Assembly (NCBI RefSeq): GCF_050320075.1
Contig: NZ_CP190018.1
From: Escherichia coli
GTDB lineage: Bacteria > Pseudomonadota > Gammaproteobacteria > Enterobacterales > Enterobacteriaceae
Direction: 5' to 3' (one strand)
Length of the DNA: 64,000 bases
Below, in pieces: positions 15,001 through 55,492 of the stretch (positions are counted from its first letter, which is position 1; each line of letters starts with the position of its first letter). The notes beneath the pieces are model-generated. The model saw nothing but the letters and a program-made list of their open reading frames with translations. It made no database searches and was not told where the DNA came from. Both the position numbers and the translations under genes were made by a program.

Positions 15001-16911
15001 CATCGCGGCGGCAGGTACCGTCAGACTCCAGGAGCCATCAGCCTGCACGGTAGTGGTAAAACTCTGTCCAGCCAGGGTTACTGTGACGGTTTGTCCTGTC
15101 TCGGCCTGTTGAGTGCTACCGGTAAGGGTCAGTGGCGCACCTTTTTCTGCGCCACTGATAATGTCATCGCCGGAGACGGTGTTAATGGTGATTAACGGAG
15201 AAACACCGACCAGCGTGATTGCTCGAGACGCCGCGCCGGTATTTCCTGCAGTATCTGTCACGGTGACGAAAATCGTATTGGCTCCGCGATCCAGCGTGCG
15301 GGTTACCGCTGGGTCCAGCGCCACATTCCAGCTGCCATCTGCCAGCACAATGCCCGTCAGGACATGAGTGCCCAATTTCACCGTTACCGTATCGCCAGGA
15401 GAAGCACCGCTGACTTGTCCGGAGATGATCTGCGCGACGGCCTGCTCAGCATTATTAAGAATATCGTCGCCCGCTACGGTATTAACACTGACCACGGGTG
15501 CTGAGGTATCTACCGTGAAATTCGCGCTGTGGCTGGTGCTGTTCCCTGCCCGATCGCTGACACTGGCATTGACAGCGTAATTACCCTCCGCCAGCGCCTG
15601 GACTTCCGTGGCAGGCAGCGTCACTTGCCAGGTTCCGTCGCTACCGACGGTTGCTGTATGGCTTTTCCCGTTGACGGTCAGTGTTACGGTTTGCCCCGCT
15701 TCTGCATTCGACGTGCCGCTCAGTACCAGCGCGACGTTATGTTCCGCAGCACTGATGATGTTGTCCTGAGCGATGGTGTTGATGGCAAGCGTTGGCGGTT
15801 GGGTATCGACCGTTAGCAGTTGCACGCCGGTGACGGTATTGCCTGTGGCGTCTTTCCCGCTGACCAGCACTGCCTGATTCCCTTCGCCTAACGCCTGCGC
15901 ATCGGCGGTCGGTACCTGCACGCTCCAGGCACCGTTAGCGCCTACGCTGGTGGTGTAGGTTTTGCCGTTTAGCGTAACGGTGAGTTCTGTTCCCTGTGCC
16001 AGATGACTACTGGTGCCAGAAAGCGTAAACCCGGCGGCCTGTTCGCTGGCGTTAATAATGTTATCGCCTGCGGTGGTGGCAACCTGCACGCTGGCCTGAC
16101 TATTGTCGATGGTTAACGTTATCGAACCGGCGTCAGTGATGGTACTGCCGACGATTTGCACCACTGACCAGGTATGTTCGCCCGCGCTTTGCGTGGGCAA
16201 ATCGACGCTCCAGCGTCCATCGCTACCGACCTGAGTACTGGCGATGGTGTCACCATTGCTGTCTTTAATCTGGATGGTCGCCCCCGCCTGCCCGCTGCCG
16301 CTAAAGGTTGGCGTAGTGTCATCGGTGGTATCGTTGGCGGAAAGAATACCGCGTTGATCGCCCTGATTATCGGTTACCAAAAACGATGGCGTGGCGTTGC
16401 CGGGTTCGGCTGGCGGTGGGTTGTTAACCACTTCAGTTTTTGAGTCATCATCGCCACCGCTTGCCAGTAAAGCGCCAAGCGCGCCGCCACCTACCGCCGC
16501 CCCCGCCAGCCATCCCCACGGGAAAGCCGTCGTCTGGCCGACGATATCAAGGTACGGCGCAATGCTTTCAATTGCGGTGGTCTGAGCGGTCAGCTCCACG
16601 GGCGCTAATCCACCTGCCGCGGTATCGGCAAATGTTACGTGGGTCAGTTGTTGACCATCGACAAACACCAGTTCGGATTGTTCGCTGGTATTTGCCGCTT
16701 GCAGGAAATAACCGTTGCAGCGGATCACCGTGCCGTCCTGCATATAGATCAACAAGTCATTTCCGTCACGAACATAACGCGCAACGGCAGATGCCTGAGC
16801 ATGAACCTGCACCACAGAGGGCTCATAAATGACAACCGTAACGTCGCCAGGATTGATCAGCGTTTGTTTGACGGATGTTTTTCGCGAAATAACATCAATA
16901 ATCAGGCTCAT
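1..16911 (-). CDS. Giant repetitive surface adhesin, probable type I secretion substrate (BapA/LapA-like, Ig-like tandem repeats); 5' end in window, 3' end beyond window start (partial, 5,637 codons in window)
   Basis: ATG at 16911-16909 with AGGAA about 8 nt upstream and an in-frame TAA 11 codons further upstream. Window positions 1-3 are in frame, and no minus-strand ORF ending inside 1-16911 is reported in this frame. My translation of the first ~600 codons gives an N-terminal module (MSLIIDVISRK...), a hydrophobic Gly/Ala stretch, then repeated ~100-aa units of the type VDTxxPxxxINTxAGDxIxxAxE...G.TVTxTLNG...DG.W. Plus-strand ORFs across the region are short low-complexity antisense shadows. 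Confidence 0.8.
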   Translation of the reverse strand, partial: MSLIIDVISRKTSVKQTLINPGDVTVVIYEPSVVQVHAQASAVARYVRDGNDLLIYMQDGTVIRCNGYFLQAANTSEQSELVFVDGQQLTHVTFADTAAGGLAPVELTAQTTAIESIAPYLDIVGQTTAFPWGWLAGAAVGGGALGALLASGGDDDSKTEVVNNPPPAEPGNATPSFLVTDNQGDQRGILSANDTTDDTTPTFSGSGQAGATIQIKDSNGDTIASTQVGSDGRWSVDLPTQSAGEHTWSVVQIVGSTITDAGSITLTIDNSQASVQVATTAGDNIINASEQAAGFTLSGTSSHLAQGTELTVTLNGKTYTTSVGANGAWSVQVPTADAQALGEGNQAVLVSGKDATGNTVTGVQLLTVDTQPPTLAINTIAQDNIISAAEHNVALVLSGTSNAEAGQTVTLTVNGKSHTATVGSDGTWQVTLPATEVQALAEGNYAVNASVSDRAGNSTSHSANFTVDTSAPVVSVNTVAGDDILNNAEQAVAQIISGQVSGASPGDTVTVKLGTHVLTGIVLADGSWNVALDPAVTRTLDRGANTIFVTVTDTAGNTGAASRAITLVGVSPLITINTVSGDDIISGAEKGAPLTLTGSTQQAETGQTVTVTLAGQSFTTTVQADGSWSLTVPAAAMGNLPDGAVAITASVTDLSGNTGNTSRTITVDSQAPALSIDPLTADNIINAAESGQDLPITGTTDAQPGQTVTVTLNGQTYQGVVQPDGTWSVTVPAANVGALADGNATVTASVNDIAGNPTSVSRVALVDATPPVVTINPVATDNVINTPEHTQAQIISGTVTGAQAGDIVTVTLNNVDYTTVVDGSGNWSLGVPASVVSGLVDGSYPINVSVTDRAGNTGSQSLTVTVNTAAPLIGINSIAGDDVINASEKGADLQITGTSDQPVNTAITVTLNGQNYTTTTDASGNWSVTVPASAVTALGQANYTVTAAVTSNIGNSNTASHNVLVDSALPGVTINPVATDDIINAAEAGVAQTISGQVTGAEDGDTVTITLGGNTYTATVGSNFTWSVSVPAADIQALGNGDLTVSASVTNQNGNTGSGTRDITIDANLPGLRVDTVAGDDVVNIIEHGQALVVTGSSSGLAEGTPLTVTINNVEYTTAVQADGSWSVGVTAAQVSTWPAGTVNIAVSGESSAGNSVSITHPVTVDLTPAAIAINTIATDDVINAAEKGADLTLSGTTTNVEPGQTVTVTFGGKNYTASVASDGSWTATLPAADLTALPEGSASAQASVSNINGNSASAVHNYSVDSSAPTIIINTVASDNIVNASEADAGVTVSGSTTAEAGQIVTVTLNSPTVQTYQATVQADGSWSINIPAADLEALTDGSHTLTATVNDKAGNPASTTHNLAVDLTVPVLTINTIAGDDIINAAEHGQALVISGSSTGGEAGDVVTVTLNSKTYTTTLDASGNWSVGVPAADVTALGSGPQTVMATVTDAAGNSDSETHTVTVNLTAPTIGINTIATDDIINATEKGADLQISGTSNQPAGTTITVTLNGQNYTATTDASGNWSTTVPASAVGALGEASYTVTANVTDSAGNSNSASHNVQVNTALPGVTINPVASDDIINAAESGVAQTISGQVTGATAGDTVTVTLGGKTYTATVQGNLSWSVDVPAADIQAIGNGDLTVNASVTNGVGNTGSGSRDITIDANLPGLRVDTVAGDDVVNSIEHGQALVITGSSSGLAAGAALTVVINNVTYGATVLADGTWSLGVPAADVGNWPAGTVNITVSGTNTAGTTTTITHPVTVDLAAVAISINTVSGDDVINAAEKSADLTLSGSTSGVEAGQTVTVTFGGKTYTATVAGDGSWTTTVPAADLSALRDGDATVQASVSTINGNTASATHAYSVDATAPTLAINTIATDDILNAAEAGNPLTISGSSNAEAGQTVTVTLNGVTYTGTVQADGSWSVSVPTADLSNLTASPYTVSASVNDKAGNPATATHGLAVDLTVPVLTINTVSGDDIINAAEHGQALVISGSSTGGEAGDVITVTLNSKTYTTTLDASGNWSVGVPAADVTALGSGPQTITATITDIAGNSDDASRTVTVNLTAPTIGINTIASDDVINATEKSADLQITGTSNQPAGTTITVTLNGQNYTATTDSSGNWSATVPASAVSALGEASYTVTANVTDSAGNSNSASHNVLVNSALPAVTINAVATDDIINAAESGNAQTISGQVTGAAAGDTVTVTLGGNTYTATVQANLSWSVSVPAADIQAIGNGSLTVNASVTNVVGNTGNGSRDITIDANLPGLRVDTVAGDDVINSIEHNQALVITGSSSGLTAGTALTVEINNVTYGATVLADGTWSLGIPAADVSNWPAGTVDITVSGTNSAGTTSTITHPVTVDLAGVAITINTLSGDDVINAVEKGETLVVSGSTSGVEAGQTVTVTFGGKNYTTTVESNGSWTVNVPPADLAALPDGAGNVQASVSNINGNSAQADRAYSVDATAPLVTINTIASDDILNVSEAGAGITISGTTTAQVGQTLTVTLNNNTYQTTVQADGTWSVNVPATDLSGLTASSYTVTATVSDKAGNPASADHALAVDVTAPDLTINTVAGDDIINAIEHGQALVVSGTSTGAAAGDVVTVTLNGKNYTTTLDASGNWTVGIPAADVTALATGSQTITASLSDRAGNSDSTTHNVTVDLSGPTLTISTVSDDDIINSTEKTQDLTISGGSSGLATGTTVTVMLNGLAYSATTDSSGNWSVTVPASAVGALGEAVYQISASATDSAGNNGSTTHTVNVESLLPGVIINTVAGDDIINAAEIAVAQTISGQVTGTAVAGNTVIVTIGGNQYTATVQPDLSWSVSVPANVLQALGNGELTISASVTNSANNTGTATHDIVIDANLPGLRVDTVAGDDVINSIEHTQALVITGSGSGLAAGAALTVVINSVTYGATVLADGTWSVGVPAADVTNWPAGTVNIAVSGTNTAGTTTSISHPVTVDLAAVAITINTLSTDDVINAAEKGSDLQLSGTTSDVEAGQTITVIFGGKSYTTTVAAGGTWGLTIPAADLATLPDGAANVQASVSNVAGNSAQATHAYSVDATAPSVTINTIASDDILNAAEAGSALTISGTSTAEAGQTVTVTLNGVNYSGNVQADGSWSVSVPTGDLANLTASPYTVSAAVSDKAGNPASATHNLTVDLAAPVVTINTVAGDDIINATEHAQAQIISGSATGATTGNTVSVTIGTTTYTTVLDANGNWSIGVPASVISALAQGDVTITATVTDSAGNSGTASHTVTVALGAPVLAINTIAVDDIINATEKGADLAISGSSNQPAGTQITVTLNGQNYTTTADASGNWSVTVPASRVSALGEATYTVTAAATDSDGNSGSASHNVQVNTALPGVTINVVATDDIINAAEAGVDQTISGQVTGATAGDTVTVTLGGATYTATVQANLSWSVDVPAAALQALGNGELTISASVTNSVGNTGNGTREITIDANLPGLRVDTVAGDDVVNIIEHGQALVITGSSSGLATDSNVTLTINGQTYVAAVLADGSWSVGVPAADVSAWPAGTVTITASGSTTAGNPVSVTHPVTVDLTAVAVSINAITADDVINAAEKGAALTLSGSTSGVEAGQTVTVTFGGKTYTASVAANGSWSTSVPAADMAALRNGDASAQASVSNVNGNNATTTHAYSVDASVPTVTINTIAGDDILNAAEAGAALTITGSSTAEAGQTVTVTLNGANYTGTVQTDGSWSISVPPADLSALTASNYTVSAAVSDKAGNPASVNHNLTVDTSVPVVTINTVAGDDVINATEHAQAQIISGSATGAATGSTVTVTIGTNTFTTVLDASGNWSVGVPASVVSALANGTVTINASVTDAAGNSGSATHQVTVNTGLPSITFNAISGDNVLNADEKGQPLTISGSSTGLATGAQVTVTLNGHNYSATTDAAGNWTLTVPVSDLAALGQANYIVSASATSAAGNTASSQANLLVDSGLPGVTINTVAGDDIINAAEAGAAQTISGVVTRAAAGDTVTVTLGGNTYTAQVQADLSWSVSVPAADLQALGNGDLTITASVTNANGNTGSGTRDITIDANLPGLRVDTVAGDDIVNSIEHGQALVITGGSSGLNAGVPLTITINGTAYSATVQADGSWSVGIPAANVSAWPAGALTVEVDGQSSAGNPVGVSHPFTVDLTAVAISISTVASDDVINAAEKGTNLTLSGSTSGIESGQTVTVTFGGKTYTASVAANGSWSVNVPAADLAILPDGAANVQASVSSASGNSASATHAYSVDASAPTLTINTIASDDILNATEAGSPLIISGTSTAETGQTVTVTLNGATYSGNVQADGSWSVSVPPSALGALSASNYTVSATVNDKAGNPGSASHNLAVDTTAPVLTINTVVGDDIINDAEHAQALVISGTSTGGEAGDVVSVVLNGKTYTTTLDASGNWSVGVPAADVAALGSGAQTITASVSDRAGNSDDASRTVTVSLTAPVISINTIAGDDVINATEKGSDLALSGISDQPAGTAITVTLNGQNYSATTDSSGNWSVTVPASAVSALGEASYSVTASVTNAQGNSSTASHNVQVNTALPGVTINPVTTDDIINAAEAGSAQTISGQVTGAAAGSTVTVELGGKTYTATVQADLSWNVSVPAADWQALGNGELTVNASVTNAVGNTGSGTRDITIDASLPGLRVDTVAGDDVVNIIEHSQAQVITGSSSGFAAGTALTVVINNQTYAATVLANGSWSVGVPATDVSNWPAGTLNITVSGANSAGTQTSITHPLTVDLTTVAVSINSITSDDVINAAEKGAALTLSGSTSGVEAGQTVTITFGGKTYTTTVAANGSWSTTVPAVDMATLRDGDASAQVRVTNVNGNSATATHEYSVDSAAPTVTINTIASDNIINASEAAAGVTVSGTSTAETGQTLTVTLNGTNYQTTVQADGSWSLTLPASDLTALANNGYTLTASVSDLAGNPGSASKGVTVDTTAPVISFNTVAGDDVINNVEHTQAQIISGTATGAVAGDRLVVTIAGQQYVTSTDASGNWSVGVPASVISGLADGTVTISATITDSAGNSSTQTHNVQVNTAAVSLSVSTISGDNIINAAEAGSALTLSGTGTNFAAGTVVTVLLNGKGYSATIQSNGSWSVNVPAADVAALSDGTSYTVSASAQDSAGNSATASRSVAVDLTAPVISINTVSTDDRLNAAEQQQPLTLNGSTSAEVGQTVTVTFGGKTYTATVAANGTWALNVPAADLAALGQGAQTITASVNDRAGNPGQTTHALTVDTVAPTVTIATVAGDDIINNAEQLAGQTISGTTTAEVGQTVTVTFNGQSWTATVGSGGSWSVFIPAQQFAGLSDGSYTISATVSDQAGNPGSASRGVTLNGDVPSVTINTFAGDDVVNAAEHGSSLVISGTTTAPVGQTLTLTLNGKTYTTTVQTGGSWSYTLGSVDVTALADGNAYVINASVSNAIGNTGSSNHTITVDLSAPAMGINIDSLQADTGLSSSDFITSVSPVVVNGSLTAALASNETAQISIDGGVTWTTLTVTGTTWRYNDSRTLTDGSYLYQVRVIDAAGNVGATDSQNVVIDTIAPDPAVKTIAINAITTDTGLITNDFVTSDTTLAVSGTLGAALSSGEFAQISIDGGTTWQNLSVSGLTWTYLDG
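300..16200 (-). repeat. Intragenic tandem repeat array: ~300-bp (about 100-aa) Ig-like units organised in ~1.8-kb super-repeats
   Basis: Recurring motifs at regular spacing: ctccagcttaaat near 3050, 4850, 6645, 8440, 10240, 12040 (and a variant near 13840); gttttgccgccaaaggtgacggtgac-like near 1291, 2489, 4276, 6076, 7871, 9671, 11471, 13271. Antisense shadow ORFs (MPPKVTVTVCP...) recur at 2489, 6080, 7874, 9674. Array bounds are approximate. Confidence 0.8.
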
Positions 16912-21202: not shown

Positions 21203-23707
21203 ATGTCACAAACTATCGACCTGACCCTGGACGGCCTGTCCTGCGGTCACTGCGTTAAACGCGTGAAAGAAAGTCTCGAACAGCGCCCGGATGTTGAGCA
21301 GGCGGATGTGTCTGTCACTGAAGCGCACGTTACCGGGACTGCCAGTGCAGAACAGCTGATCGAAACCATCAAACAAGCGGGTTATGACGCATCTGTAAGC
21401 CACCCAAAGGCTAAACCGCTGGCGGAGTCATCAATCCCGTCGGAAGCACTGACAGCGGTTTCTGAGGCGCTTCCGGCAGCGACCGCCGATGACGATGACA
21501 GCCAGCAGTTGCTGCTGAGCGGCATGAGCTGCGCCAGCTGTGTCACCCGCGTACAAAATGCGTTGCAAAGCGTACCGGGCGTCACTCAGGCACGGGTAAA
21601 CCTGGCGGAGCGTACTGCGCTGGTGATGGGCAGTGCCTCCCCACAAGATTTAGTGCAGGCGGTGGAAAAAGCGGGCTACGGCGCGGAAGCGATTGAAGAT
21701 GACGCTAAACGCCGCGAGCGCCAGCAGGAAACCGCAGTCGCTACGATGAAGCGCTTCCGCTGGCAGGCAATTGTCGCACTGGCGGTGGGTATCCCGGTGA
21801 TGGTCTGGGGGATGCTCGGCGATAACATGATGGTCACCGCTGACAACCGCAGCTTGTGGTTAGTTATCGGCCTGATAACCCTGGCAGTGATGGTTTTCGC
21901 CGGCGGCCATTTTTACCGTAGTGCATGGAAAAGCCTGCTGAACGGTGCAGCGACGATGGATACGCTGGTGGCGCTAGGTACTGGCGTGGCGTGGCTCTAT
22001 TCGATGAGCGTCAACCTGTGGCCGCAGTGGTTCCCGATGGAAGCGCGACATCTTTATTACGAAGCCAGCGCGATGATTATCGGTCTGATCAATCTCGGCC
22101 ATATGCTGGAAGCGCGCGCGCGTCAGCGTTCTTCTAAGGCGCTGGAGAAATTACTCGATTTAACCCCACCGACGGCGCGCCTGGTCACCGACGAAGGTGA
22201 AAAAAACGTGCCGCTGGCAGATGTTCAGCCAGGTATGTTACTGCGCCTGACGACCGGCGACCGTGTGCCGGTAGATGGTGAGATTACCCAAGGCGAAGCG
22301 TGGCTGGATGAAGCGATGCTGACGGGCGAACCTATCCCGCAGCAAAAAGGCGAAGGCGATAGCGTCCATGCCGGGACAGTGGTACAGGACGGCAGTGTGC
22401 TGTTTCGTGCCAGTGCGGTCGGCAGCCATACTACGCTGTCACGGATCATTCGCATGGTGCGACAGGCCCAGAGCAGCAAGCCAGAAATCGGTCAACTGGC
22501 GGATAAAATCTCCGCCGTGTTTGTGCCGGTAGTGGTAGTCATTGCGCTGATCAGTGCGGCAATCTGGTATTTCTTTGGTCCGGCACCGCAGATTGTCTAT
22601 ACCCTGGTGATTGCCACCACGGTGCTGATTATCGCCTGTCCGTGTGCGCTGGGACTGGCGACGCCGATGTCGATTATTTCGGGCGTCGGGCGGGCGGCTG
22701 AGTTTGGTGTGCTGGTGCGGGACGCCGACGCGCTGCAACGCGCCAGTACGCTCGACACCGTGGTGTTCGATAAAACCGGGACGCTGACCGAAGGGAAGCC
22801 GCAGGTTGTCGCAGTAAAAACATTTGCTGATGTTGATGAAGCGCAGGCATTGCGTCTGGCGGCGGCGCTGGAGCAAGGTTCCAGCCACCCGCTGGCACGG
22901 GCGATCCTCGATAAAGCAGGTGATATGCAGCTACCGCAGGTCAACGGTTTCCGCACATTGCGCGGGCTGGGTGTGAGCGGTGAAGCTGAAGGTCATGCGG
23001 TATTGCTGGGCAATCAGGCGCTGTTAAATGACCAGCAAGTTGATACTAAAGCGATTGAGGCAGATATTTCAGCTCAGGCATCACAAGGGGCAACGCCTGT
23101 GCTGCTGGCGGTTGACGGGAAAGCGGTAGCCCTGCTGGCTGTACGCGATCCATTGCGTAGTGATAGCGTGGCGGCGCTGCAACGCCTGCATAAAGCGGGA
23201 TATCGTCTGGTGATGCTAACCGGGGATAACCCAACCACCGCCAATGCGATCGCCAAAGAAGCAGGGATTGATGAGGTGATAGCCGGGGTGCTACCGGACG
23301 GTAAAGCCGAAGCGATCAAACGTCTGCAAAGTGAAGGACGTCAGGTGGCAATGGTGGGCGACGGCATTAACGACGCGCCAGCGCTGGCTCAGGCGGATGT
23401 CGGTATTGCGATGGGTGGCGGCAGTGATGTTGCCATTGAAACCGCGGCGATTACCCTGATGCGCCATAGCCTGATGGGTGTTGCGGATGCGCTCGCGATT
23501 TCCCGCGCAACGCTGCGCAATATGAAGCAGAACCTGCTCGGCGCGTTTATCTACAACAGTATCGGTATTCCGGTCGCCGCCGGTATTTTGTGGCCGTTCA
23601 CTGGAACACTGCTTAACCCGGTGGTCGCCGGAGCGGCAATGGCGCTCTCGTCGATTACCGTAGTGAGTAACGCCAACCGGTTGCTGCGGTTTAAACCGAA
23701 GGAATGA
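21203..23707 (+). CDS. copA: Copper(I)-exporting P1B-type ATPase
   Basis: 834-aa ORF with two N-terminal GLSCGHC / GMSCASC metal-binding motifs, CPC transmembrane motif, DKTGT phosphorylation site and GDGIND motif; SD GGAG upstream. Confidence 0.95.
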
Positions 23708-23789
23708 TTGGTATTTACTTAATGCGTTTGTGAGATCCAGTTCTTGTTGCGCTCCTTTTATGAGTAATGCCATATAAAGTGACTGGCGC

Positions 23790-23990
23790 AGGGAGCGCGC
23801 AGGGGGCGGCCAATCGCCGCCGCCCCCTGCACCCCCGGGCTCTGGCGAACAAAATCTCCGCTGCGCGGTACCCTCAGCTTATCCCTTGCGGCTACCGGGT
23901 CGGGCGCGAGGTAACATCCCTGTAAAACGCGCCCTCAGCCCACATCCATGTGGGCTGCCCCGGCCTTCAGGGAACGCCTCGGCGATTTTG
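23790..23990. repeat. GC-rich palindromic non-coding element in the copA-ybaP spacer
   Basis: No ORF of 60 aa or more that is not attributable to overlap with copA or ybaP. Contains a 12-bp perfect inverted repeat gcagggggcggc / gccgccccctgc with an 8-nt loop and a second palindrome gcccacat-cc-atgtgggc; GC content well above the flanking sequence. Confidence 0.35.
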
Positions 23991-24135
23991 ACGCCACCAA
24001 CACCGGTGCAGTCTTTCGTTTCAAAGCAAAAACAATTTTTCGATCATATTTAAGCTACCACTGAACAAGCCTCATAACTCCATTTGCGCCATCCCTCCCC
24101 GCGCGCTAGCATGATATTTCACAAAGGGAGGTCGT

Positions 24136-24930
24136 ATGGATCTGTTGTACCGGGTAAAAACGCTTTGGGCCGCGCTGCGCGGTAATCATTACACCTGGCC
24201 TGCTATCGATATCTCTCTTCCCGGCAATCGCCATTTTCATCTGATTGGCAGTATTCATATGGGCAGCCACGATATGGCTCCCCTGCCCACCCGTTTGCTC
24301 AAAAAGCTCAAAAACGCCGATGCGCTGATCGTCGAGGCGGATGTTTCCACCAGCGATACGCCTTTTGCTAATTTGCCTGCCTGCGAGGCGCTGGAAGAGC
24401 GCATTAGCGAGGAGCAACTCCAAAACCTGCAGCACATTAGCCAGGAGATGGGCATTTCTACCTCACTCTTTTCTACCCAACCGCTGTGGCAAATCGCGAT
24501 GGTTCTTCAGGCGACGCAGGCACAAAAACTGGGGCTGCGGGCAGAATACGGTATCGATTACCAGCTATTGCAGGCGGCGAAGCAACAACATAAACCCGTG
24601 ATTGAACTGGAAGGGGCTGAAAACCAGATTGCCATGTTGCTCCAGCTCCCTGACAACGGACTGGCACTGCTGGACGATACGCTGACCCACTGGCACACCA
24701 ATGCACGGTTGCTGCAACAAATGATGAGCTGGTGGCTGAATGCGCCGCCGCAAAATAATGAAATAACGCTGCCTAATACGTTCAGTCAATCGCTGTACGA
24801 TGTGCTGATGCATCAGCGAAATCTCGCCTGGCGGGACAAATTATGCGCCATGCCGCCGGGGCGCTATGTGGTCGCAGTCGGTGCACTACACCTGTATGGA
24901 GAAGGGAATTTGTCGCAGATGTTGCGCTAA
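24136..24930 (+). CDS. ybaP: TraB/GumN-family protein YbaP
   Basis: 264-aa ORF, ATG at 24136 with GGAGG upstream. Confidence 0.85.
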   Translation: MDLLYRVKTLWAALRGNHYTWPAIDISLPGNRHFHLIGSIHMGSHDMAPLPTRLLKKLKNADALIVEADVSTSDTPFANLPACEALEERISEEQLQNLQHISQEMGISTSLFSTQPLWQIAMVLQATQAQKLGLRAEYGIDYQLLQAAKQQHKPVIELEGAENQIAMLLQLPDNGLALLDDTLTHWHTNARLLQQMMSWWLNAPPQNNEITLPNTFSQSLYDVLMHQRNLAWRDKLCAMPPGRYVVAVGALHLYGEGNLSQMLR

Positions 24931-25012
24931 AAAAATGGCCAATATCGCTATTGGCCCGTCAAAGAGGAATTTCATTTTTTTATTATTATGCCGTCACTTT
25001 AAGCGACGGTGT
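24929..25012 (-). ncRNA. chiX: ChiX (MicM/SroB) small regulatory RNA
   Basis: Minus-strand sequence ACACCGTCGCTTAAAGTGACGGCATAATAATAAAAAAATGAAATTCCTCTTTGACGGGCCAATAGCGATATTGGCCATTTTTT matches the ChiX sequence as I recall it, including the terminator hairpin (ggccaata/tattggcc) and U-run; lies between ybaP and ybaK. Confidence 0.85.
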
Positions 25013-30654: not shown

Positions 30655-30689
30655 ACGGTGGTTGCCGGATAATAGGCGCGGATATGTAG

Positions 30690-30772
30690 GCCTGATAAGA
30701 CGCGCCAGCGTCGCATCAGGCATCGAGAGCCAAATGCCAGATGCGGCGTGAACGCCTTATCTGGCCTACGAA
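30690..30772. repeat. REP/BIME element (two inverted REP copies)
   Basis: gtaggcctgataagacgcgccagcgtcgcatcaggca and tgccagatgcggcgtgaacgccttatctggcctac, inverted relative to each other, in the ybaL-gsk convergent spacer. Confidence 0.7.
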
Positions 30773-38085: not shown

Positions 38086-40017
38086 TCAAATGGGGCGGAT
38101 ACTTTCTTCATCCAGCTCCGCATCGAAGAACCGACGCAGGGTCTGAATATTATTATCCGCAATAATGGACTCGCGCGCCTGCGCAAGTTTTTCTTCGTAT
38201 ATCGCCTGACGCCATTCCAGCGGCGTACGCACCGCGGGATTATCATCTTCAACGATAGTCAGTTCAACCGTTGAACCTTTTAACATGCTCAACGCTTCAG
38301 CCAGTTTTTGCTGTGCGCCGCGGTTGTTCAAATGCCGCTGAGAGGAGCGCAAATGCAGACATACTGCGTTGTCGCTCTCCTCTTTCCAGGCATTTAACGC
38401 CACCTGTTCGACCAGTTTTGGTAGCGAAAGTTGACTCACCTGAGCCGCCCACGGGTCGCGCTCAATGGCTTCTGCCGCCAGCTTCGCCGCCAGTTCCGGC
38501 GTTTTTTCATGTTCCAGCGCTTTTTTCAGCGCCTTCGGCGTAGCGACCACTTCTTTTTGCTGCATCACTGGAGTGGTGGCCTTCCAGCGATACGCTTCTT
38601 TTTTGGCTGGCGCTTTTTCCAGCGCCGATGGCACCGGACGCGCCTGAACGCGATCGGTGACCGAAGCCAGTCTTTCCAGCGCAGCGTTATTCACCGGCCG
38701 CGCGCGGGTAGCGGCTGCCGGTTCACTCTTTTTTGCTTTGGTTGCTCCCTGCACGCGCTGCAACTGCTGGCGCGCCGCCAGCACCTGGCTGGTGGTTTCC
38801 GGGAGCGGTACAGTCGGTGCCTGCTGCGGCGCTGATTGCGGTTGCGGCGGCACCTGGGTTGGCGTCATTACTGCCGTTGGCGCGACGGGCGCAAAGGACT
38901 GGCGTGGCACTTCTGGCTCAGGCAGCGGCATACGCGGATGGAACGCCAGCGCGCGCAACAGCGTCATCTCAACGCCCATACGGCGGTCTGGCGCATACGG
39001 TAATTCTTTGCGACCAATCAACAGCGTCTGATAGTAAAGCTGAATATCCGTCGGCGGTATGGTGCGCGCCAGTTCACGCATCCGCAGCTCGATAGCGGCC
39101 ATGTCGTTGCCAAGTGCAGCAGGCGAAAGTTGTACCATCGCAATACGATGCAACAGGCCGAGCATTTCCACCAGCAACGCTTCCCACTCGATACCACGGG
39201 CAGCGGCTTCATTAATCAGTGCCATTACGCGCTCGCCGTTGGCCTCGATCATCGCTTCAACCAGCGACAGCGCCTGATCGTCGTCAAGCGTACCCAGCAT
39301 CGCACTGACCGCCTGAGTTGAAACCTGGCCGTCACCGCTGGCAATCGCCTGGTCGGTCAGACTTAAGGCATCTCGCAGGCTGCCTTCAGCGGCGCGTGCC
39401 AGCAATTGCAGCGCCCGCGGCTCGTGAGCGATATGTTCTTCGTTGAGGATGTGCTCAAGCTGATGGCGAATTTGCTCGACATCCAGCGCCTTGAGATGAA
39501 ATTGCAGACAACGTGACAAAATCGTCACCGGCAATTTCTGCGGATCGGTCGTCGCCAGCAGAAACTTAACGTGCTCTGGCGGCTCTTCAAGGGTTTTTAA
39601 CAGTGCGTTAAAGCTGTGGCGCGACAGCATATGCACTTCGTCGATCAGATAAACTTTGAAACGACCACGCGCCGGAGCGTACTGGACGTTATCCAGCAGG
39701 TCGCGAGTGTCTTCAACTTTAGTGCGCGAGGCGGCATCGATTTCAATCAGATCGACAAAGCGCCCCTGCTCGATTTCACGACAGTTATCGCACACGCCGC
39801 ACGGCGTCGCGGTAATGCCGGTTTCGCAGTTTAGCCCCTTCGCCAGCAGTCGGGCGATAGAGGTTTTTCCGACGCCACGGGTGCCGGAAAAAAGATAAGC
39901 ATGATGAATACGCCCTAACGACAAGCCGTTCGCCAGTGCGGTCAGCACATGTTCCTGGCCGACGACGTCAGCAAAGGTTTGTGGGCGCCATTTTCGGGCT
40001 AAGACCTGATAACTCAT
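38086..40017 (-). CDS. dnaX: DNA polymerase III subunits tau and gamma
   Basis: 643-aa ORF with AAA+ Walker A (GTRGVGKT); contains the frameshift site listed separately. Confidence 0.97.
   Translation of the reverse strand: MSYQVLARKWRPQTFADVVGQEHVLTALANGLSLGRIHHAYLFSGTRGVGKTSIARLLAKGLNCETGITATPCGVCDNCREIEQGRFVDLIEIDAASRTKVEDTRDLLDNVQYAPARGRFKVYLIDEVHMLSRHSFNALLKTLEEPPEHVKFLLATTDPQKLPVTILSRCLQFHLKALDVEQIRHQLEHILNEEHIAHEPRALQLLARAAEGSLRDALSLTDQAIASGDGQVSTQAVSAMLGTLDDDQALSLVEAMIEANGERVMALINEAAARGIEWEALLVEMLGLLHRIAMVQLSPAALGNDMAAIELRMRELARTIPPTDIQLYYQTLLIGRKELPYAPDRRMGVEMTLLRALAFHPRMPLPEPEVPRQSFAPVAPTAVMTPTQVPPQPQSAPQQAPTVPLPETTSQVLAARQQLQRVQGATKAKKSEPAAATRARPVNNAALERLASVTDRVQARPVPSALEKAPAKKEAYRWKATTPVMQQKEVVATPKALKKALEHEKTPELAAKLAAEAIERDPWAAQVSQLSLPKLVEQVALNAWKEESDNAVCLHLRSSQRHLNNRGAQQKLAEALSMLKGSTVELTIVEDDNPAVRTPLEWRQAIYEEKLAQARESIIADNNIQTLRRFFDAELDEESIRPI
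38690..38734 (-). other. dnaX programmed -1 ribosomal frameshift site (A AAA AAG heptamer plus downstream stem-loop) generating gamma
   Basis: Minus strand GCAAAAAAGAGTGAACCGGCAGCCGCTACCCGCGCGCGGCCGG; slippery heptamer at 38734-38728, an in-frame-after-shift UGA two codons later, and a GC-rich stem-loop immediately 3'. Encodes the ...KAKKSEPAAATRARPVN... segment. Confidence 0.85.
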
Positions 40018-55377: not shown

Positions 55378-55492
55378 GGGTGGGGGCCCTGCCAGCTACA
55401 TCCCGGCACACGCGTCATCTGCCTTGGCTGCTTCCTTCCGGACCTGACCTGGTAAACAGAGTAGCGTTGCGGGAGAACCAACAGAGCCCCCA
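55378..55492 (-). ncRNA. ffs: 4.5S RNA (signal recognition particle RNA)
   Basis: Minus strand reads GGGGGCTCTGTTGGTTCTCCCGCAACGCTACTCTGTTTACCAGGTCAGGTCCGGAAGGAAGCAGCCAAGGCAGATGACGCGTGTGCCGGGATGTAGCTGGCAGGGCCCCCACC, matching the 4.5S RNA including the conserved domain IV region; ends are +/- 2 nt. Confidence 0.9.

Follow-up and report, generated by a model that had tools for sequence, protein, structure and literature searches.

A probable additional Replication Risk Sequence between copA and ybaP in a minority lineage of Escherichia coli

What occupies the space between copA and ybaP when ybaQ, the gene found there in Escherichia coli K-12, is absent? The locus lies in a 64-kb stretch of the E. 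coli contig NZ_CP190018.1, the whole of which was analyzed (hereafter the window). In it, copA ends at 23707 and ybaP starts at 24136, leaving a 428-bp spacer. In K-12, ybaQ and a cluster of three REP elements are located between the two genes. A first, sequence-only reading had correctly placed ybaQ at this position in K-12 and noted its absence here, and had described a GC-rich block with two palindromes and no credible open reading frame (ORF) of 60 amino acids or more.

The spacer and its repeat family

This description of the spacer holds. ORFs entirely within it encode 38-55 amino acids, and the sole ORF of at least 60 amino acids entering it (23291-23773, minus strand, 160 amino acids) is antisense to copA. 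The GC content is 0.61-0.71 over 23750-24000, compared to 0.43-0.44 in the flanking sequence. Both palindromes are exactly where they had been placed: a 12-bp perfect inverted repeat at 23799-23810 and 23819-23830, and a second palindrome with perfect 10-nt arms at 23936-23945 and 23948-23957. The 18-mer GCCCACATCCATGTGGGC has a chance expectation of 0.16 per window. A check for a ybaQ frame hidden by a sequencing error recovered none, and the block proved to be neither unique nor unstructured.

The block is most probably an additional copy of the Replication Risk Sequence (RRS, also listed as TRIP1), which in a minority lineage of E. coli has replaced ybaQ and the REP cluster. It is a known kind of element at a new locus. 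The core aligns with K-12 RRS-lysO at 93.7% and with RRS-dusC at 92.6% identity over 271 bp, and at 96.9% over 229 bp; a third, partial K-12 copy between yegH and asmA was likewise recovered. The G-quadruplex (G4) motif of RRS, GGGGGTGCAGGGGGCGGCGG, is present on one strand only and nowhere else in the window, and the 12-bp perfect inverted repeat consists of its G-tract plus the complement. A literature search with sequence strings returned no mention of the element. The features of the locus are collected in Table 1.

The repeats at lysO and dusC of K-12 were named RRS by Pham, Wood, Dunbar, Cox and Goodman (2023, PMC10287960; 2024, PMC10592627), on passages of whose papers the following account is based. 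Rudd (1999) had listed them as TRIP1, counting a third partial copy. They are two GC-rich repeats of 222 bp, ~650 kb on either side of dif, flanking the Ter macrodomain, and their position and sequence are described as conserved. At both sites, GGGGGTGCAGGGGGCGGCGG lies on the strand that serves as lagging-strand template. This strand blocks Pol I, II and IV in vitro; in vivo, it gives rise to gaps in the lagging strand, up to ~2 kb long, which become loaded with RecA and SSB. The effect is reported wherever an RRS sits in this orientation, and copies engineered at fabR, djlC and dinI each produced a new RecA/SSB peak. For K-12, the RRS are reported as conditionally essential and as shaping supercoiling across the whole genome, and the authors propose that the gaps relieve topological stress. 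Additional RRS are mentioned for some species. In a 2026 preprint, Kusi-Appauh et al. (passages of PMC13308219) report a gap in vitro at essentially every replisome encounter, with a lower frequency when the complementary strand serves as template.

Base-by-base alignment with K-12 shows that ~355 bp (23705-24062) stand for ~730 bp of K-12 sequence. The left edge of the replacement lies inside the copA stop codon, which is TGA here and TAA in K-12, and the right edge lies ~73 bp upstream of ybaP. The alignment thus confirms a replacement scar, which the first reading had offered as one possibility, and identifies the lost segment as ybaQ with the REP cluster. The tails of the cassette are weakly similar to those of other RRS copies. 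This allele is present in 346-347 of 5426 complete E. coli genomes (~6%). The 1-kb stretch around the spacer is 100% identical to that of strain YZLc1-3, and the same 1 kb occurs at 99-100% identity in more than 300 independent complete genomes.

The other possibility raised earlier, a dispersed GC-rich repeat, is also supported. Query positions 43-313 were matched in nearly all E. coli genomes, and a sensitive blastn search located the core in 5425 of the 5426, at a median of 3 places per genome (range 1 to 10). The suggestion that the repeat resembles box C fails. Box C is a 56-bp GC-rich element with ~30 copies in K-12, whereas the unit here is ~270 bp and has two to three K-12 copies (full at aqpZ-lysO and yohP-dusC, truncated and of a second subfamily at yegH-asmA); the comparison was with these general figures for box C and not with its consensus. 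Full-length relatives of 85-98% identity are found in other Escherichia species, Pseudocitrobacter, Kluyvera and an Enterobacteriaceae metagenome-assembled genome (MAG), and up to 13 places were matched in one chromosome-sized Klebsiella record. No further RRS copies were found within the window.

Table 1. Features of the copA-ybaP locus and of related loci. Positions refer to the window unless another record is named; a dot means that no strand is assigned.
Feature	Position	Strand	Remarks
copA	21203-23707	+	flanking gene; its stop codon is the left junction of the replacement
RRS cassette (core and less conserved tails)	23705-24062	.	from K-12 alignment; replaces REP cluster, ybaQ and part of the ybaQ-ybaP intergenic region
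Conserved RRS-family core	23742-24012	-	G4 motif and better-supported fold are both on the minus strand
Terminal hairpin	23749-23798	-	arms GCGCTCC 23749-23755 and GGAGCGC 23792-23798; two covarying pairs (helix 13)
Equivalent of published 222-bp near-perfect RRS repeat	23783-24004	-	block in which K-12 lysO and dusC copies are nearly identical
GC hairpin (12-bp inverted repeat), 8-nt loop	23799-23830	.	minus-strand 5' arm inside G4 motif; compensatory changes elsewhere (helix 12)
G4-forming motif GGGGGTGCAGGGGGCGGCGG	23817-23836	-	exact match, single in window, 0 expected by chance
TwoAYGGAY-like domain	23837-24002	-	irregular long closing stem and two capping hairpins; Rfam RF01731, 32.8 bits, E 0.009
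Closing stem P1, 3' arm	23850-23865	-	pairs with 23975-23990; compensatory changes (helices 2-3)
Apical hairpin 2	23902-23934	-	loop region UUACAGGGAUGU on minus strand (helices 8-9)
Apical hairpin 1	23936-23957	-	minus strand CAGCCCAC-AUGGAU-GUGGGCUG (ACAUGGAUGU); stem kept in Klebsiella
Closing stem P1, 5' arm	23975-23990	-	pairs with 23850-23865
ybaP	24136-24930	+	flanking gene; inside predicted gap zone (gap direction inferred)
Head-to-head pair loci	L016 1868-2400; L074; L042 9360-9777; L029; L044 4179-4540; Psychromonas NC_008709.1		
IS1 near RRS	14EC033 (L004) 2687-3384; YZLc1-3 (L099) 15179-15876; MB53 (hit H47)		

Fold of the G4 strand and overlap with the TwoAYGGAY motif

Support for a fold was evaluated in a 22-sequence alignment of the G4 strand. 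In this fold, two adjacent hairpins cap a long, irregular closing stem, after which come the GC hairpin and then the terminal hairpin. Of the cells in the alignment, 98.6% are paired, and compensatory changes occur at 13 pairs (44 cells); six of these pairs belong to P1, the stem that closes the two hairpins (helices 2-6). None of 500 shuffles reached the observed pairing and compensation values, and slid controls had 39-47% of cells paired and 0-3 compensatory pairs. Hairpin 1 is invariant in this alignment because its exact 18-mer served to gather the copies; in Klebsiella copies, which were retrieved by BLAST, it carries a compensatory A-U to G-C change. The GC hairpin retains both its pairing and its G-runs through a CGGC>AGGA / GCCG>TCCT change, indicating that the hairpin itself is constrained and not only the G4. 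The terminal hairpin has the arms CGTTCAC/GTGAACG in subfamily 2. A subfamily-2 RRS of Escherichia whittamii (L066, 8438-8823) has a 75-nt GC-rich insert in the closing stem.

The two strands differ in folding. With RNA parameters, the G4 strand folds more stably in 22 of 22 copies (mean -149 vs -132 kcal/mol), and among 38 pairs predicted on both strands, G-U pairs outnumber A-C mismatches by 14 to 1. With DNA parameters, the minus strand reaches -77.8 kcal/mol (z -5.3 against shuffled sequences) and the plus strand -72.1 kcal/mol (z -5.8). Folding, which the first reading had proposed as a check, thus reveals a real, strand-specific structure, which may act as single-stranded DNA. Since G-T wobbles are tolerated in folded single-stranded DNA too, the strand asymmetry is no proof of an RNA.

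A coding role of the block was considered and rejected. Its short ORFs are disrupted by 1-nt indels in Kluyvera copies, and a small ORF following a Shine-Dalgarno-like AAGGAG at the 3' end varies between copies in both start codon and peptide.

The closing stem and its two capping hairpins match the TwoAYGGAY motif of Rfam (RF01731). The window copy aligns with the whole model (positions 1-168), at a score below the gathering score (32.8 vs 43 bits); K-12 RRS-lysO scores 30.6 bits. The Kluyvera orthologue (L042) reaches 54.2 bits over the whole model, and diverged sister elements that stand head-to-head beside RRS in Pseudocitrobacter and Kluyvera reach 49.2 bits, both above threshold. Edaphovirga elements score 41-42 bits, Shewanella 34.8 bits and Lachnospiraceae members 72-79 bits. 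No other Rfam family matched the block at E up to 1. Loop 1 of the window copy, AUGGAU, fits AYGGAY; loop 2, AGGGAU, has a G where Y is expected, so that one of the two AYGGAY loops departs from the motif. The Kluyvera and L029 elements have AUGGAU in both loops, and in these the stem changes of hairpin 2 are compensated. The founding TwoAYGGAY alignment (Weinberg et al. 2010) includes one gut-metagenome sequence with an RRS-type 3' domain, namely a G-rich hairpin followed by CGUUCAC...GUGAACGGAAC.

Divergent (head-to-head) RRS/TwoAYGGAY pairs, often of two different subfamilies and spaced by tens of bp to ~2 kb, occur in Pseudocitrobacter, Kluyvera, Edaphovirga and Psychromonas. The seven TwoAYGGAY copies of Psychromonas form three divergent pairs and one single, and the pairs rule out a simple replichore rule for their orientation.

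The apical loops on the minus strand, UUACAGGGAUGU and CCACAUGGAUGU, resemble the CsrA consensus RUACARGGAUGU, with GGA in a hairpin loop, obtained by systematic evolution of ligands by exponential enrichment (SELEX). The two minus-strand sites, ACAGGGAUGU and ACAUGGAUGU, present a hairpin-loop GGA within an ACA...GGA...UGU context of the CsrA type; they are 28 nt apart, which is a bridging distance, and are the only two ACANGGATGT sites in the 64 kb. From Escherichia to Klebsiella, the GGA is invariant while the stems covary. CsrA binding has been proposed for TwoAYGGAY by Gardner and Eldai.

These observations, together with the above-threshold scores and the RRS-like sequence in the founding alignment, are the case for regarding the element as being, or also being, a TwoAYGGAY-class structured RNA transcribed from the minus strand, which we consider unlikely. 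Its two apical GGA hairpins would bind one CsrA dimer, and the transcript might be a small CsrA decoy or a CsrA-stabilized RNA. However, scans found no sigma-70 promoter and no intrinsic terminator: there is no site with a GC hairpin and U-tract on either strand of 23600-24250, and manual inspection of 21 upstream flanks of copies revealed no conserved -35/-10 pair. The orientation relative to neighboring genes is also inconsistent, mostly antisense or convergent. The gene beyond the 3' end of the element (in the sense of the G4 strand) is convergent at ~30 of 36 RRS/TwoAYGGAY loci, which are not all independent, and in tandem-gene contexts the element is mostly antisense to both neighbors. 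In the gene-level tables of Potts et al. (2017), dusC and ybjE are marked 'No' in cross-linking immunoprecipitation sequencing (CLIP-seq) and in three other CsrA target sets, although such tables possibly miss intergenic or multi-mapping reads. Klebsiella copies, moreover, have GCA...UGC in place of the 'invariant' ACA and are not detected by the Rfam model.

Shortly after its stop codon, the dusC mRNA of K-12 contains the G4-strand sequence of the RRS. This mRNA has a half-life of 3.25 min in the wild type and of 1.74 min in a csrA mutant (log2 -0.90, flagged as not significant; Potts et al. 2017, Supplementary Data 2).

A broader reading, which we hold as a tentative possibility, unites the RRS 'DNA' element with the TwoAYGGAY 'RNA' motif in one structured family, whose two invariant GGA loops are read by a trans-acting partner. 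Such a family would extend from Enterobacteriaceae to Psychromonas, Shewanella and gut Clostridia. The partner could be either CsrA acting on a minus-strand transcript or a factor that recognizes the folded lagging-strand template.

Orientation, inversion alleles and the expected gap

Seven RRS-matching places are found in YZLc1-3, three of which were located. In its record, the copA copy and RRS-lysO have their G4 strands on one strand, and RRS-dusC has its G4 strand on the other; both native copies (lysO and dusC) have the K-12-type orientation relative to their flanking genes. The copA copy thus shares replichore and strand orientation with RRS-lysO and, given synteny with K-12, its G4 strand should be the lagging-strand template. 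Family identity, together with the exact G4 motif on this presumed template strand, argues for an additional RRS in the gap-triggering orientation.

Published work on the K-12 copies at lysO and dusC shows the mechanism of an RRS: once the replication fork has unwound it, its G-rich strand folds into a G-quadruplex and extensive hairpins. Where the folded strand is the lagging-strand template, the polymerase copying it stalls and re-primes; the post-replication gap left behind is single-stranded, up to ~2 kb long and loaded with SSB and RecA. By analogy with the K-12 elements, we infer that the copy described here also triggers gaps: the lagging-strand polymerase would arrive from the copA side and stall at the G4/GC hairpin, and the gap would run from the RRS towards ybaP, chiX and ybaK. 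The small RNA gene chiX (Rfam sroB, 82 bits; 24929-25012, minus strand) abuts or overlaps the ybaP stop codon and lies in the expected gap zone.

Several observations weigh against this assignment. The template orientation is read from synteny with K-12, and the window's GC skew is too flat for an independent check. The site, at ~0.51 Mb in K-12 coordinates, is ~1.08 Mb from dif, compared to the canonical 650 kb, and in YZLc1-3 the copy is 471 kb origin-proximal of RRS-lysO. About six substitutions fall within the 222-bp block. A model in which the element is purely a polymerase roadblock predicts neither the match to an Rfam RNA motif nor the invariance of the GGA loops. Finally, native RRS exist in both orientations, as described below, and orientation may therefore be less constrained than the model implies. 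With respect to position, the copy is not one of the dif-flanking pair, but one of the 'additional RRS' of the original authors.

Inversion alleles of the native RRS were counted via allele-specific junction sequences in all 5,426 genomes. At aqpZ-lysO, 4,121 genomes have the K-12-type orientation and 908 (17%) are inverted; at dusC, the corresponding numbers are 3,411 and 2,002 (37%). As the two proportions differ, at least a fifth of the genomes lack the arrangement in which both native RRS have the K-12 orientation. Each orientation allele carries its own 40-60-bp tails and, at dusC, also different last codons, indicating old cassette alleles and not recent flips. The orientation of RRS is evidently less conserved than their position and sequence.

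The resequencing tables of PMC11510482 list intermediate-frequency variant calls at both K-12 RRS copies (915,226; 2,229,177-2,229,205), a pattern that looks like read cross-mapping or gene conversion between the repeats. In MAG contig JAFAEO010000008.1 (L015, 1-772), the 3' end of copA is joined via an RRS to the 3' end of dusC, and a second, partial RRS is located at the contig end in inverted orientation. This join reflects either recombination between RRS copies that inverted part of the chromosome, or a chimeric assembly at the repeat.

Other explanations, related systems and significance

At lysO and dusC, complete intergenic cassettes are exchanged together with their allele-specific tails, and in either orientation. 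Such exchange would also be expected of a selfish or neutral dispersed repeat without a function of its own at this site, spread by horizontal transfer with flank recombination or by an unknown kind of transposition. The small fraction of genomes with a copy here, the range of 1 to 10 copies per genome, the number of places in the Klebsiella record and the location of the elements in gene 3' regions, which tolerate insertions, all fit this explanation. Nevertheless, we judge it improbable. The internal fold is maintained by compensatory substitutions, and published RRS are active wherever they are placed in this orientation. A model based on miniature inverted-repeat transposable elements or insertion sequences (IS) was rejected: the copies have neither target duplications nor terminal inverted repeats, the TTAC found upstream of some of them is inconsistent, and no associated transposase was seen (nor any transposase or integrase next to the Lachnospiraceae copies). 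A phage or plasmid origin was rejected as well. No phage matches to the element were found, and the 34 matching records of the plasmid collection are all typed as non-mobilizable, those inspected being chromosome-sized records or carriers of chromosomal genes.

Three unrelated strains have an IS1 within ~0.15-0.5 kb of an RRS copy: one in aqpZ, one in the final codons of dusC (with the 9-bp duplication TGCAAGGGC) and one between asmA and yegH. This closeness may be due to chance or to a target preference near gap-prone DNA. The intergenic region between a glycoside hydrolase 31 gene and ybiT (ABC-F) contains an RRS in Klebsiella (L095); in YZLc1-3 it is 180 bp long and empty.

Because the element abuts the copA stop codon, where K-12 has its three REPs, it might instead provide a 3'-end RNA structure for copA, such as an insulator or a barrier to exonucleases. 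The plus strand, too, has a strong fold, and the 3' end of the element faces the 3' end of a convergent gene at most of the 36 loci. However, there is no U-tract terminator, the strand asymmetry favors the opposite strand, and the same element is found elsewhere without an upstream co-oriented gene, making this role very unlikely. The idea of a ybaQ remnant, or of a sequencing or assembly artefact, had only the positional expectation from K-12 in its favor and is effectively refuted: tblastn with K-12 YbaQ (E up to 10) found no YbaQ-like coding sequence in the whole window, the replaced segment is homologous to RRS copies elsewhere and not to ybaQ, and the same sequence in more than 300 independent genomes contradicts an artefact.

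We return to the additional RRS and its relation to known systems. Compared to RRS-lysO and to RRS-dusC, this copy has 93-97% identity, the exact G4 motif, the same hairpins, and the strand orientation and replichore of RRS-lysO; it differs in its distance from dif (~1.08 Mb), in having its own tails and in being a third full copy in ~6% of genomes. With TwoAYGGAY (RF01731; Weinberg et al. 2010), it shares the long closing stem and the two adjacent GGA-loop hairpins. However, the 3' extension of RRS (G4/GC hairpin and terminal hairpin) is lacking in the clostridial members inspected, and RRS is documented as a DNA element and not as an RNA. REP/BIME elements are similar in being intergenic, palindromic and GC-rich, in lying at the 3' ends of genes and in having been linked to chromosome topology, and a BIME occupies this very spot in K-12. 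They have no sequence similarity to RRS, consist of ~35-bp units in hundreds of copies, compared to 270 bp in 2-10, and act as gyrase sites or insulators rather than as a lagging-strand roadblock. The CsrB/CsrC/Rsm sponge RNAs likewise present GGA motifs in hairpin loops that match the CsrA SELEX consensus, whereas the element has only two such sites, no promoter or terminator was found, and the K-12 flanking genes have no CLIP support. The pilE G4 of Neisseria gonorrhoeae is also a G-quadruplex that causes gaps to form, and the RRS authors cite it as the sole further example from bacteria (passages of PMC10287960, PMC10592627). Its sequence is unrelated, it serves antigenic variation, and it lacks the multi-helix fold.

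Elsewhere in the window, Rfam matches at gathering level are naRNA4, a REP-derived nucleoid-associated RNA (30689-30766, minus strand), the dnaX frameshift element (38689-38753, minus strand) and the signal recognition particle RNA (55387-55483, minus strand). The GC content of positions 1-16000, at 0.60-0.62, is unusually high for the species; judging from synteny with K-12, this part may be an Rhs element.

PMC10592627 and the passages drawn on from PMC10287960 and PMC13308219 contain no mention of a covariation-supported multi-helix fold, of inversion of the native lysO or dusC RRS or, with a keyword search in the case of PMC10592627, of Rfam, RNA motifs, CsrA or hairpins. The interest of the copA-ybaP copy as such is modest; the fold, the inversion alleles, and the overlap with TwoAYGGAY together with its CsrA-like loops matter more.

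Not until 2023-2024 were RRS recognized as functional. A third, natural copy, apparently in forward orientation and ~0.47 Mb origin-proximal of RRS-lysO, offers a ready test of placement-independent gap triggering, and of the effects of added gaps on topology, on the neighbors ybaP, chiX and ybaK, and on rearrangements between RRS copies. The covariation-backed fold, the overlap with an orphan Rfam motif and the inverted native RRS are each a testable challenge to the RRS model. If RRS and TwoAYGGAY are indeed one family with loops read by a partner, RRS would have a recognition layer beyond the polymerase block at the G4, natural experiments would be provided by extra copies such as this one and by the alleles inverted at lysO (17%) and dusC (37%), and TwoAYGGAY elements in other phyla may be programmed triggers of replication gaps.

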